NCBI GenBank assembly: GCA_010405405.1
Contig: MU004234.1
Location: 106,993 to 170,992 of the forward strand
DNA from: Microthyrium microscopicum
Lineage: Eukaryota
Reading direction: 5' to 3'
Length of the DNA: 64,000 nucleotides
Positions 52,858 through 63,670 of the stretch are shown here, in pieces. Both the position numbers and the translations under genes were made by a program. The number at the start of each line of letters is the position of its first letter. Within the stretch, counting starts at the first letter, position 1. The notes below the pieces were generated by a model, which had not been told where the DNA came from, made no database searches, and saw only the letters and a list, made by a program, of their open reading frames with translations.

Positions 52858-53720
52858 CTACGGCAAAGAAAATCGAACATTTCTCAAAAGAGACTTAGCT
52901 CCAGCATTGCTACCGCTAGCTAACCTGGTGCTACGACGAGTTGACACGCTCAGAATTCCTTTGCCCAAAACATCTCTCAACGGCTTGTCTTGCTCAGCAG
53001 CAACCTCTCGCACAAGACTTTGAGCTTCGTGTCCGCAAGATAAGAGCTCAGCAGCAATCTTCTTGCACAGCACGCTTTGCTGTTCCTTCATGTCGAAGAT
53101 GTCTTCTAGCTCCTTGATGAAGCAAGTGACTGTGCCGATAAGTGTCGTGAGATGCTGCGGTTCATACAATGCCCATCTGGAAGCTAGACCAAGACCTCGA
53201 ACGAAACTACCAGGACTTTGGCTAGGAAGAGAGATCGCTTGACGCCTATCAAATCTTAGTGCAATCCTCCACTTGAATATCTCGTAGATGGATCGGATCA
53301 CTTGAAAAGAGGAACGTACCGAATCTTTCGATGGAGCTCAGCCATCTCATCATTATCTTCCACATACTCTCGGCCACAGAGCTCGCGACTTGTACTCCTC
53401 TCCTCAATCCTGCTCTCATACCCGCTCGCTGTGTTAAATGCTTCCTTCAGCTGTAACACGATCTTCGTGAGTATGTCATAAGCTAGGTCAGCTTCTCTCA
53501 CTTTGAAGCAGTCATACAGATCAGAAAGGTCTTCCAAAGCGAAGCCTACGGATTCGCCCCAACGAGCCAACCTGAATTGGGCTATTTCGAGCTGGAGCTT
53601 GTGGACATCAAAATCTTCCTCGAAATTCCGGGCGAGCCGGATGTTGTCAAAGCAGTCGACGACGTCTTTGAATAGACTGGCGAGAGGCGCGATGATGTCG
53701 GCTCCTGCGGGATTGTACAT
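52858..53720 (-). CDS. HeLo/HELL-domain protein A (HELLP-like; no clear C-terminal amyloid motif)
   Basis: LASLFKDVVDCFDNIRLARNF; LQLEIAQFRLARWGESVG; after one intron RWALYE...LEDIF...EQD..L. Matches the prion-inhibition/HeLo family pattern. Confidence 0.85.
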
Positions 53721-54169
53721 GATGTCAGGTCAGATTGATCTTTTTGGCCCTTCGGTGCTATGAGCGGACAACCGAATGATATGAAGAGATGAGCAGAAAT
53801 CTTAAATGGCTCAACATGCTCAGCAGTATGAATGAATGCAATCTGAGAGCAAGCAGTTTGCTTTGCATGCAAATAACACCGAGCATATGATGTCCTAGAT
53901 CTGACACCTAACAAATTGGCAAAGATCACGAAAAATCTATCGATTTTGGACAGCGGGTTTTCCAGCATCTATTCATCAAGGCGGTTGATTAGATAGACAT
54001 AACCGATCATTCACCATGGCAAACCTGGATGTCACTTGAGGTTGGAAAATAGTCACATTGAGGTATTTGAAAGAGCATGGAAATACAGATTGCTATCATG
54101 ACATGTTGTTACCATCACAAACCCCAACTACTCAACGGAGGAACGCCAAGAGACCATACCCCAATCCAT

Positions 54170-59972: not shown

Positions 59973-60963
59973 TTCTGTATTGAAGACACAGCAGAGGATA
60001 TTTCATTGAAAGGTTCATGTGGTCGCAGTGCGCTTTCTGATCTTCTAGGCATAAGATGGCACTAGGGATATGATTTGGTTTATTTGATAGCTCATCAACT
60101 TGTCCGAGTCTCAGCATTCTTTTCCCTTAAGAGTATCGTACGCTACTTGGTTCAACATAATGGCTTCATCATGTAGCATCGCTAGTCCTTCAATTTGCTC
60201 ATGCCAGGTCTTCTTATCGGGTATAGCCTGCTCCCAGATACCATGAGGAGTTTCAATATACTCTTTTTCTCGTTAGATGGTGATGGAAAAAGCCAGTCGA
60301 TCTACGCCGCTAACAGTGAAGTCAATGAAATGGCTTGTCAGATCATTCTCAAAGCTTTGGAGAGAACAGTGATTTTATGCGTTGGCCCCATGTCAGGCTC
60401 CTATCGTTTTGAACAAGCTTTGAATGGACACATTGTAATGAGTGGCAATATATTGTTAGCCGTCACGGTAACGAGTGGAATATATGAAGCAAGCCTAGTA
60501 CAATCAAGATTGTGCTCGACTTTCGTACACCGTCGGGGGGCATTGAAGCGGCCGATAATGGGTTAAGCCCGGTGGTTGACATCACGATTATTGAGAATAA
60601 AGTATTCGATTATACTATCATATTTGACAGATCAAAGAAAGAGGATTCTGAGATTATGTACGACCTCTTGCGACAATAGCAAATAGTTTTTGACATATGA
60701 AGATCAACACGCGGGTTGAAGTTTGTACTTATGCCAAATCCTGACACCTAATTGCTTTATAGTCTTCGAGAATTAACCTGGTTGCATGTGCAATGGTTCT
60801 TTCTCTCTCGGAAGCTATGAAACCTACTGGCTGACATCGCTCAATACTCTTTTCACTGCGCTTTGCGACAACCAAGATTGACTTCGATTTGCTTGTCTTC
60901 AAATCTAACACGAAACACAAGCAAGCCTATATCTCTATTCGTTTCAGCAGGATAGTTATCATC

Positions 60964-63670
60964 GTGGCTGAGCCTCTTACTTTTGACGATGAACTGGTTT
61001 CTGCTATGCGCAAGATGATTTTTGGCGATAACCCAGGTGTTCGGGCAACGCCACAGGACAGCGGAAGCAATAGGCACTACCAATACGCATCGTTCACCGG
61101 AGCTTCGAATAGAGGTATCCAAATAGGTTACAATGTAGGGAACATCGAAAGTCATATTCACCACGCAGCAGGTAAGAGATGGATGGGGGCTTATAATATT
61201 GCAGTCTCGGGTTAACCCAAGAACAGAACATCCGGAGATAACGCCAGAACCTGATATTTTTATCAACTTTGAGCGAGATGTTGACTTTGTTGGACGTTCG
61301 GAGATACTGAAGAATTTGGAAGAGAAATGCGTAGTTCCTGGTTCATGGACAGTGCTGGCTGGCCTTGGTGGTGTTGGGTAAACACTACGCCTATCTCTAT
61401 GAATTATCGCACGATAAGCTTACACCCGTTAGAGAGTCTCGAATTGCCGTAGAGCACTGTTACAGGCTCCACGCATCGACACCGGACACTTGGATTTCTG
61501 GATTCGCGCAAGTAACGAAGCTCGTTATGACCAAAGCCTGAGAGACATCGCGGAAAAGCTAAAACTATCTGGTCGACAAGACCCAATAGCCAACTTTGCC
61601 AAACTATTTCACGATTGGTTGCAAAACAACAATCGAAAATGGTTTGTCGTTCTCAATAACGCAGATGATGCAGGATTCCTTATCAACTCCAGCCAGTCTA
61701 GTCAGAGCTCGCAACCAGGTGCCGGCGATAGTGCTTCTATTCCCCCAAACTCTAAGCCTCTCCGCGAATATCTCCCTCGTCCTCAGCATGGCTCATACCT
61801 CGCCACAACCAGAAGTAAAAGGGCTGCCCGGCAGCTGACGAAGGTCAGAAAGATCATTCCTGTAGACTTGATGGATGAGGAAGAAGCTTGTCGACTACTG
61901 CAGACCAGGTTAGAAGATGAGCAGCCAAAGATCGATTTGCTCAACCTTATGAGGGCTCTCGAATGTATACCACTTGCTATCGTCATGGCTGGCGCCTACA
62001 TCTCGAAAAGGGCGCCACGTTGTTCAGCGCGCCAGTTTCTCAATACATTTGAGAAAAACGATAAACAAAAAGTGAGTCTGCTCTCTAATGATGGCGGGTA
62101 TCAAGCAAGGGACTACCAAGCGCAAAACTGCGTTTTCACAACATGGAATATAACAATGCTGCACATATTCAATACAAACAAGCCAGCTGCTAACTTGTTC
62201 TACGCTACAAGCTTCTTCGATCGACAAGGCATTCCCGACGATCTTCTGAGAAGTGTTTTCATGTGGATACAATCCAGCAAGAAAGCGATTGACTCAAGTG
62301 AACAAGAGGCCGAAGAGAACAGCGATAACAATGCTTTAGCATACTTTCAACGACCTGAATCCAGTTCTAGCATGGACGAAGCATTTGAAAACGCCTTCCA
62401 GATGCTCAGAGACTATTGGCTCGTGACCGTGACTGCCGATCCCAGTGTATTTGAAGTACATCGACTGATACAGGTTGGTGCAAGACAACTTAACCTGACA
62501 AGCAATGACTTCTACGGTAACCTCCTGGTAGGTTTGGCGGTTATTTATTTCGATTTTGAAGATGGAAAACCAGTATCTGGAAGCCACAGTCTGGGTCAAG
62601 ATATTGAGAGCAAGAAATGGAGGGTCTACTTTCCACACTTCAAAGCCTTAATCAGCTCGGAGCCACAGCTTGACGAATATAAGGGAGTGTGGCTGCTGAT
62701 TCTTAGCAATACAGCAGAAGCAGCAGTTTTCGCGGGAAAGTATTCCGAGGCAGAGAGCATCGCGAGTGTCCTTTTGCAAAGATGTTCACCAGATACATGG
62801 AAAGCAACCAGTCCTACCACACTAATTTGGAAGCGAGAGACCTTTATGCGAATCAATGTCGTTCTTGGAAAGTCGTACGCAGCTCGACTCATGTATTCAC
62901 AATGTGAAATCTTTCTGGACCGCTTTCTACCAACAATGTTCAAAGAGTTCAATATCTGGTCGAACGAAATTGAACCGTCACCGTCCGAGTTACCGAATCT
63001 TTTCCTTTACGTAGACATACTGTGGACTTTAGCCATGGTGAAGCTATGCCAGAACAAACTGCAACAAGGTCAGAAATGGCTGGATCGTGCATATGAGACG
63101 ATTTGTTACTTCACAATGCAACACCCATCGGTGGAAGACCGATTCAAGCGCAGGACATTAGATATAACCGAAGCTCTTATCATCAATGTGATAAGAATAA
63201 CGGCGAATCGAGAGATGATACGAAATGAAAAGCTTGCTGAGCTTCCGGAAGCGGTGGAAGAAGTTAGAAATCTCGCATCACAGAACTATGACAGAAGTGT
63301 TGCTTTATTGGGAGCCGATGATGTCCGGACGACTCGAAGACGTTGGAATTGTCTCTTCTTGGCAGGCACATCGGAAGCGCATGAGAGCTTAGTGAAAGAG
63401 GGTCAAGGGGCTCGTGAGAAACTTGAGGCTTCATTAGGCTCTGATCACTCAGCAATCCCAGAAGCCCTGTGGTTTTTGGCAACTCTCTTGAAGCTGGTTG
63501 ACAAGCATGCTGAAGCGTTAGAAGTCATGGAGGAATGTGTGAGGCTGGGCGCTCAGATTCGAGGTTCAGACAATTGCCGGACGCAGGAGTGTGCGAGAAG
63601 GTTGTCGAACTGGAAGCAAAACATTCCAGGCGTGCCTGCAATTGGCTTATTCATGGCATCTTTTCCATAG
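60964..63670 (+). CDS. NLR 2: PP motif / NB-ARC / TPR paralog; degenerate P-loop and frameshift, possibly a pseudogene
   Basis: FTGASNRGIQIGYNVGNI; DFVGR; AGLGGVG|ESRIAVEHCY; same intron positions as NLR 1; VVLNNADD; FEVHRLI; TPR-like tail. The homologous start is GTG at 60964; the first ATG is at 61006. Confidence 0.85.

Follow-up and report, generated by a model that had tools for sequence, protein, structure and literature searches.

Does a gene cluster that brings together the parts of a fungal amyloid-signalling immune system, in several copies, still work as such a system in the strain in which it was sequenced? A locus of Microthyrium microscopicum raises this question (assembly GCA_010405405.1, contig MU004234.1, positions 106,993 to 170,992 of the forward strand). 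This stretch of 64,000 nucleotides, hereafter the window, is nuclear DNA from a fungus and contains spliceosomal introns; between positions 52858 and 63670 it holds three HeLo (PF14479) genes on the minus strand, which we call EffA, EffB and EffC, and two sister genes for NLR receptors on the plus strand, NLR1 and NLR2. An initial annotation had taken this array for a locally amplified module of regulated cell death or non-self recognition. It was right about the family and the kind of mechanism, as HeLo effectors and NLRs share a PP (RHIM-like) motif and stand head to head. As a working module, the array of three effectors and two receptors did not survive scrutiny in this strain, in which both NLRs are damaged in the P-loop and only EffB appears to keep both the motif and a hydrophobic N-terminus. 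We propose instead that it is probably a PP-motif amyloid-signalling cluster subject to birth-and-death evolution and caught in decay.

The gene models, built from reading frames and GT..AG sites, are as follows:

52858..53720, minus strand: EffA, HeLo protein of 262 amino acids (exon 1 53320-53720, intron 53246-53319, exon 2 52858-53245 including the stop codon)
54170..55121, minus strand: EffB, HeLo protein of 249 amino acids (exons 54775-55121, 54429-54708 and 54173-54292; stop codon 54170-54172)
55737..56590, minus strand: EffC, HeLo protein of 265 amino acids (exon 1 56190-56590, intron 56134-56189, exon 2 55737-56133 including the stop codon)
56591-57301: intergenic region of 711 bp between the divergent start codons of EffC (ATG 56590) and NLR1 (ATG 57302)
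57302..59972, plus strand: NLR1, with PP motif, NB-ARC and degenerate TPR (exons 57302-57500, 57561-57708 and 57758-59972)
61006..63670, plus strand: NLR2, sister of NLR1 (exons 61006-61171, 61227-61377 and 61433-63670)

The divergence of EffC and NLR1 from a region of about 710 bp, as first described, is thus confirmed at 711 bp between the two ATGs. If the established model applies by homology, an activated NLR would oligomerise and its N-terminal PP motif would take an amyloid fold; this fold would then be templated onto the C-terminal PP motif of a HeLo protein, whose N-terminal hydrophobic helix would be freed and damage the membrane.

Receptors, effectors and the shared PP motif

Profile searches bear out the proposal of three tandem HeLo paralogs on the minus strand. 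Against a Pfam cutoff of 23.2 bits, PF14479 scores 68.6, 63.0 and 58.1 bits on exon 1 of EffA, EffB and EffC, and 21.2 (below the cutoff), 30.2 and 31.5 bits on their respective second exons. On these scores, all three effectors carry a HeLo-type N-terminal four-helix cell-death domain. The initial annotation had spoken of HeLo/HELL effectors, and the second half of this label has to be dropped: PF17111 (HeLo-like/HELL) gives no match for the effectors at E<=0.1 or E<=1, PF14479 being the only family reported, and the effectors are, by their profile matches, HeLo and not HELL proteins. Our EffA model is identical to database protein P0121 of M. microscopicum, and EffC corresponds to P0122 minus 20 upstream N-terminal residues (P0122 starts at an upstream Met). 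EffB is absent as a protein among the database matches to the effectors and no RNA support was seen for its model, in which the splice sites read GTAAGT..TAG and GTAAGT..CAG.

The closest database match to the NLRs is P0001, an NB-ARC-TPR NLR with 33% identity over 97% of the query, and homologs of this type carry precomputed PF00931 and TPR families. Searched with the large exon alone, NB-ARC reaches 11.8 and 11.5 bits in NLR1 and NLR2 (cutoff 23.5) and TPR_12 reaches 18.3 and 24.0 bits (cutoff 30.1), while DUF7779 scores 29.7 bits in NLR1 (above the cutoff of 27) and 21.3 bits in NLR2 (below it). Because the large-exon Pfam scores are below cutoff, the NB-ARC-TPR label rests mainly on homology to proteins like P0001. 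The description of two plus-strand NB-ARC-TPR paralogs therefore stands as far as homology goes; neither reading frame is whole. No NLR1 or NLR2 protein is found among the 120 best database matches to NLR1 (top listed identity 42%), whereas EffA and EffC are in the database.

In Pfam, the PP motif is represented by PF17046 (Ses_B; bioRxiv 10.1101/2020.01.06.895854). Its cutoff of 23.2 bits is exceeded in the last exon (exon 3) of EffB and at the N-termini of NLR1 and NLR2. A strict pattern, written from the published consensus and scanned in the six frames of the window and in 200 shuffles, has exactly three matches (shuffle mean 0.005), which fall at the EffB C-terminus and the two NLR N-termini:

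54212..54259, minus strand: PP motif of EffB, strict pattern and PF17046 (33.4 bits)
57422..57469, plus strand: PP motif of NLR1, strict pattern and PF17046 (25.0 bits)
61093..61140, plus strand: PP motif of NLR2, strict pattern and PF17046 (24.8 bits)

Both receptors thus carry an N-terminal motif by either method, and one effector of three reaches the PF17046 cutoff at its C-terminus. The C-terminus of EffC gives no PF17046 match at E<=1; its PP-like stretch (about 55776-55829) is degenerate and has about 8 of 18 positions in common with EffB in an alignment read by eye, in which the central Gln and several Asn are retained. EffA likewise gives no PF17046 match at E<=1, and the alignment shows a C-terminal remnant only. 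A missed PP exon downstream of EffA was sought in all frames and none was found. As EffC is without a match and EffA has a remnant only, the solid instances of the motif are, by profile and pattern, three and not four. The 18-residue motif first reported for two NLRs and two effectors accordingly holds for NLR1, NLR2 and EffB, and is degenerate in EffC.

About 38 residues stand ahead of the motif in NLR1 (57302-57421) and about 28 in NLR2; in P0001 and P0118, the motif begins at residue 10 or earlier. Three residues upstream of the NLR1 motif stands a Met that is in frame with it.

Lesions in the receptors and losses in the effectors

The P-loop of the NLR relatives reads GLGGVGKSQLAIEY. NLR1 is hit in it, and NLR2 is hit in it and at two further places:

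57762-57764, plus strand: in-frame TAG at the Walker A Ser/Thr codon of NLR1
61434-61436, plus strand: Walker A Lys>Glu in NLR2
61494-61495, plus strand: frameshift of 1 nt in NLR2, one base lost in a short T run
61655-61657, plus strand: Walker B Asp>Asn in NLR2

NLR1 reads G-K-stop-Q-I-A-I-E-Y where relatives read G-K-S-Q-L-A-I-E-Y, and its first open frame is left with 117 amino acids, made up of the PP motif and a linker. In NLR2, the P-loop reads G-E-S-R-I-A-V-E-H. An intact Walker A (GK[ST]), a Walker B Asp and an unbroken frame occur together in neither gene. Mutation of the P-loop abolishes the activity of HET-E (PMC3321046), and in Podospora, NLR genes with stops, frameshifts or transposable element insertions are common and differ among strains (PMC13449251). 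Alternative splice choices by which the stop of NLR1 or the Lys>Glu change of NLR2 could be bypassed were sought, and none was found in frame; the NLR1 acceptor is confirmed by RNA. Editing of the TAG can be rejected, as the RNA contig keeps it and the Trp that editing would yield could not repair Walker A.

Could the lesions be artefacts of the assembly or of one laboratory stock, the natural genes being intact? The NLR2 frameshift does sit in a short T run, where such errors might be suspected. We turned to sequencing runs, of which seven (X1-X7) contain the stretch or part of it. Contigs re-assembled from X4 span 52700-63700, including two long contigs without differences; at a word depth of about 1030, there are no other letters and no gaps over 55755-63700, which includes the NLR1 TAG and the whole of NLR2. 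Since these contigs show no differences, the NLR lesions are not errors of the deposited assembly. X1-X4 may be the source sample of the window assembly and hence not independent, but X5 comes from another sample with another study code. No run is on record as RNA and the nature of X5 was at first a guess; the absence of GT..AG introns from its contigs leads us to regard it as RNA. Its record 10 (depth 95) has the NLR1 introns 57501-57560 and 57709-57757 removed exactly and extends to 60093 with no other letters, so that the spliced NLR1 RNA carries the TAG as well. Moreover, the Lys>Glu and Asp>Asn changes of NLR2 are substitutions, not indels. Artefacts are thus an unlikely explanation, and we hold it extremely improbable that intact natural genes lie behind these readings.

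One stretch of the X4 re-assembly is less regular. It breaks at 55664-55784, around the EffC stop codon, with a bin depth of up to 1409; short contigs here show 2-4 other letters at a depth of 6-19, against about 800-1000 for the main form. A short repeat or a minor variant might account for this.

For the effectors, we compared the mean Kyte-Doolittle hydropathy of the 16-residue hydrophobic stretch ahead of the conserved (V/I)ECF with that of six relatives. The relatives range from 1.5 to 2.05; EffB reaches 1.57, EffA 0.74 and EffC -0.27, the EffC segment having four charged residues and two prolines. The hydrophobic N-terminus thus seems to be lost in EffC and partly lost in EffA. This segment of the HeLo domain is the part that we take, from HET-S, to enter the membrane. 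Put together with the PP-motif scores, the hydropathy values suggest that EffB is the only effector to keep both the trigger (the motif) and the weapon (the hydrophobic N-terminus).

The history that we consider probable is then the following. An ancestral HeLo/NLR pair would have been duplicated locally, long ago, to give three HeLo and two NLR genes, which would then have diverged very fast. Most copies look disabled in the sequenced strain: NLR1 is still transcribed and correctly spliced, with a stop inside its Walker A; NLR2 has lost both Walker residues and its frame and is barely transcribed (X5 depth over the NLR2 region is only about 1-5); EffA has lost its motif; and EffC is left with a degenerate motif and no hydrophobic N-terminus. 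EffB alone keeps all that marks an executioner.

Several observations weigh against decay. The NLR frames stay open after the lesions for 735 codons in NLR1 and 724 in NLR2, and an alignment read by eye shows that other NB-ARC landmarks are kept, namely the TTR, PLA(I/M) and (M/V)HRLI stretches; inactivation is therefore recent, or else the remainder is still under selection. The NLR1 RNA of X5 is abundant and correctly spliced. Each of the three effectors has an unbroken frame and consensus splice sites, and EffA and EffC look disabled on the strength of motif loss and hydropathy. Only a single strain is seen, and the long branches described below cannot separate relaxed constraint from diversifying selection. 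The last point concerns the NLR1 stop itself, which stands in a UAG-CAG-AUA context and conforms to CARNBA, a pattern reported to promote readthrough in yeast (PMC4132726).

Some of these points would be expected if the array were still a working immune or incompatibility module, with NLRs that continue to signal, for instance through readthrough of the NLR1 stop, and drive several HeLo executioners. The long frames downstream of the lesions, the transcription and splicing of NLR1, and motifs above the Pfam cutoff in NLR1, NLR2 and EffB all agree with such a module. However, the CARNBA fit is weak evidence because the conserved Gln-Ile/Leu codons after the stop largely force it, and readthrough, by near-cognate decoding, would fill the Walker A position with some amino acid other than Ser/Thr, in a P-loop of the kind whose mutation inactivates HET-E. 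NLR2 would in addition need its frameshift bypassed and would still lack both Walker residues, the Lys of A and the Asp of B, and two of the three effectors are without a Pfam-detectable motif. We therefore regard a working expanded module as very unlikely.

If decay is the correct reading, the locus shows clearly how an amyloid-signalling immune cluster can evolve by birth and death in a fungus, here a little-studied Dothideomycete, with old duplications in place, very fast divergence, inactivation directed at the P-loop of both receptors and one executioner left whole. It would be of use for comparison, and it would warn that a working system need not lie behind motifs found paired in raw sequence. 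How amyloid-signalling systems are understood to work is unchanged by it.

Transcripts across the locus

The effectors are covered by a spliced RNA on the opposite strand:

52700-57144, plus strand: spliced RNA antisense to EffA, EffB and EffC

It is represented by X5 record 9 (4342 nt, depth 95.8, no other letters), which begins about 67 nt ahead of 52700. Its introns (54700-54756, 55356-55411 and 56823-56879) are all GT..AG on the plus strand, with good donors, CTGAC branch sites and AG acceptors, while the minus-strand introns of the effectors are retained. The third of them lies in the region between EffC and NLR1, as does a joint that spans 57145-57233 at a depth of 58.8, with 29 nt on its shorter side, and connects the antisense RNA to the NLR1 contig. 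We looked for a plus-strand protein gene behind this RNA and rejected the idea, the longest open reading frame being 115 amino acids in the 4410-nt stretch before the NLR1 ATG. Because it contains 97 ATGs and no longer frame, this 4410-nt leader is non-coding. Contigs cannot prove that the antisense RNA and NLR1 form one molecule, that sense effector mRNA is absent, or where the RNA starts. No contig has the effectors' own introns spliced; contigs drop rare forms and are thus silent on effector expression.

The plain explanation may be divergent or read-through transcription from a neighbouring housekeeping promoter, as the end of the antisense contig and the 5' end of a divergently oriented gene for a REI1-like zinc-finger protein are a few hundred bases apart. 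Among the matches listed in a search of the fungal literature, no title dealt with antisense control of HeLo genes. The antisense RNA is a feature that deserves follow-up, resting on the contigs of one run. Together with the truncated, motif-only NLR1 peptide, it would matter more only if shown to regulate cell death.

Such a regulatory role is part of another reading, in which the locus has reached a derived state like that of het-s. The 117-residue NLR1 peptide and the HeLo paralogs without helix or motif would act as amyloid carriers, decoys or antidotes, the locus would possibly be an allorecognition haplotype, and the antisense RNA would restrain EffB. Podospora anserina offers a precedent in het-s/nwd2, where NLR and HeLo toxicity were lost together and the amyloid motif was kept: the het-s haplotype combines HET-s, with a non-toxic HeLo domain, and an inactivated nwd2, and nwd2 is inactivated in all analysed wild het-s isolates (PMC3321046). 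The loss of an NLR partner has a direct precedent here, and the likeness extends to an inactivated NLR beside a HeLo protein with a seemingly altered killing part. The expressed NLR1 transcript does encode the PP-motif peptide, EffC has lost its N-terminal hydrophobicity with its frame open, and a spliced antisense RNA does span all three HeLo genes. The het-s system differs in its motif (HET-s/HRAM), in its NACHT-WD NLR and in inactivation by a transposon (PMC3321046). Prion behaviour and allelism are demonstrated for het-s. Further, the EffC motif is too degenerate for Pfam, the contigs establish neither a single antisense-NLR1 molecule nor a lack of sense effector mRNA, and the antisense RNA may be the plain by-product of a neighbouring promoter mentioned above. 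We accordingly regard a derived het-s-like state as unlikely. Its most specific form would be a PP-motif counterpart of the het-s haplotype, with P-loop-off NLRs, the 117-residue peptide, harmless EffC and EffA as carriers or antidotes, EffB silenced by the antisense RNA, which would start near the divergent housekeeping promoter and cross the three HeLo genes into NLR1, and the active haplotype in other isolates; this we consider quite unlikely, and it would make the locus an allorecognition locus.

A low-depth (5.5) X5 contig skips 51 nt at 63058-63110 with CT..AC ends; the skipped piece is an intron in an RNA made from the minus strand, which runs antisense to the 3' region of NLR2. From X6 and X7 (organism C), the search yielded short low-depth pieces and two unrelated 36-nt matches only, which are uninformative on strains or habitat.

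Age of the copies and comparison with related clusters

Pairwise identities are low, at 25.4% (61/240), 31.2% (78/250) and 30.6% (74/242) among the effectors and 39.8% (320/804) between NLR1 and NLR2. An effector tree of 32 rows was built from 25 effectors picked from 75 metagenome loci (near-full-length single-frame matches were kept, near-duplicates and truncated ones dropped), four database proteins and the three window genes. EffA, EffB and EffC form one clade (support 96/93). Their end branches measure 1.75-2.24, while the median is 0.16; the tool warns that branches of such length may attract each other. A phase-2 intron shared at the same alignment column by the three effectors, in place of the one uninterrupted frame of their canonical relatives, gives independent support for their common origin. 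The NLR tree has 65 rows and includes 63 of the 120 listed homologs, namely those in which a P-loop could be recognised and was followed by 400 residues or more (the remaining 57 were left out). In it, NLR1 and NLR2 are sisters (Shimodaira-Hasegawa-like approximate likelihood ratio test, SH-aLRT, 100), and their end branches measure 0.95 and 0.98, compared with a median of 0.37.

The local amplification that had been proposed is borne out by the two groupings and the shared intron. Low identities, clades, intron and long end branches together indicate that the array is the product of local duplication, long ago, with unusually fast evolution; at 25-31% identity for the effectors and 40% for the NLRs, the duplicates are, as judged from divergence, old rather than recent. 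No close orthologs of the five genes were found in the protein database or in metagenome contigs, where best identities are about 33-45%.

The basic unit is already described, since it was on HeLo proteins of the dermatophytes Arthroderma otae and A. gypseum that Daskalov et al. 2012 defined the PP motif (PMC3321046). There, a HeLo protein extended at its C-terminus by a short PP segment adjoins a STAND/NLR of the NB-ARC-TPR type with an N-terminal PP motif, and the consensus FxGx(x)NxGLQLxGxNxGxL matches NLR1, NLR2 and EffB by eye (PMC3321046). Unlike these pairs, the window has three HeLo and two NLR genes, all highly diverged, with both NLRs damaged in the P-loop and two effectors without a recognisable motif; its effectors also bear introns, whereas the canonical relatives that we fetched are intronless. 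The HELLP/SBP/PNT1 system of Chaetomium globosum and Podospora anserina likewise combines the PP motif with a PP-NB-ARC-TPR receptor (PMC5485727, PMC7885112), and one PP-NLR is proposed to govern more than one effector there, namely HELLP and SBP (PMC5485727). In contrast, the effectors of the window are HeLo and not HELL by profile, the additional ones are paralogs with the same domain, and there is no SesB-like lipase, no gene of this kind having been seen in the window by profile scan or in lists of open reading frames. Among non-self database matches to the effector, six of seven carry PF14479 and PF17046.

The initial annotation had also assumed that known clusters have one NLR and one effector each, a premise that turns out to be too narrow. 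We fetched 25 metagenome loci of at least 6 kb. An NLR stands beside a HeLo gene in 12 of them, typically head to head, and extra copies (at least two HeLo or at least two NLR genes) occur in five:

L047: two HeLo and two NLR genes
L054, L056 and L058: one HeLo and two NLR genes each
L059: two HeLo genes and no NLR gene

Three HeLo genes occur in none of the 25 loci. L047 (1-13369), L054 (1-12348) and L056 (1-10891) resemble the window in having several head-to-head HeLo/NLR pairs within about 13 kb, and their NLRs share with NLR1 and NLR2 a P-loop intron between GVG and K. They differ in having at most two HeLo and two NLR genes, in two pairs that flank a Tc1-like transposase, and in a C-terminal motif of another variant, FGNDNKGFQSGHVSGGTFTFG. 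The three look like versions of one locus, and in L047 one HeLo frame is shortened to 187 amino acids. Given this layout and this truncated HeLo gene, multi-copy, partly decayed clusters exist elsewhere; the array of the window is the largest among the loci compared, and such clusters are not special to it. One database protein, P0025 (889 amino acids, ENA), consists of an NB-ARC-TPR NLR without its N-terminus fused to a complete HeLo and PP effector, and is probably a gene-call merger of two neighbours.

Among the matches listed in a literature search for Microthyrium microscopicum, no title concerned NLR or HeLo. The surroundings of the cluster are ordinary genes rather than repeat-rich DNA. 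Its neighbours in the window include, besides the REI1-like zinc-finger protein, a BAR-SH3 protein, a class-V aminotransferase, Vps23, a HET-domain protein, an Argonaute and a transketolase-family subunit. The sole AT-rich block in the window (1-6000; GC 0.18-0.21, against 0.42-0.53 elsewhere) is 47 kb from the cluster and looks like a relic of repeat-induced point mutation or of a repeat. The HET-domain gene (19860-21545, plus strand; PF06985, 100 bits) is a further gene of the cell-death or incompatibility type. Finally, the Argonaute gene (30611-33947, plus strand), which is read in several frames with one weak ArgoN match and two strong Piwi matches, lies about 20 kb from the cluster, a locus with both sense and antisense RNA.

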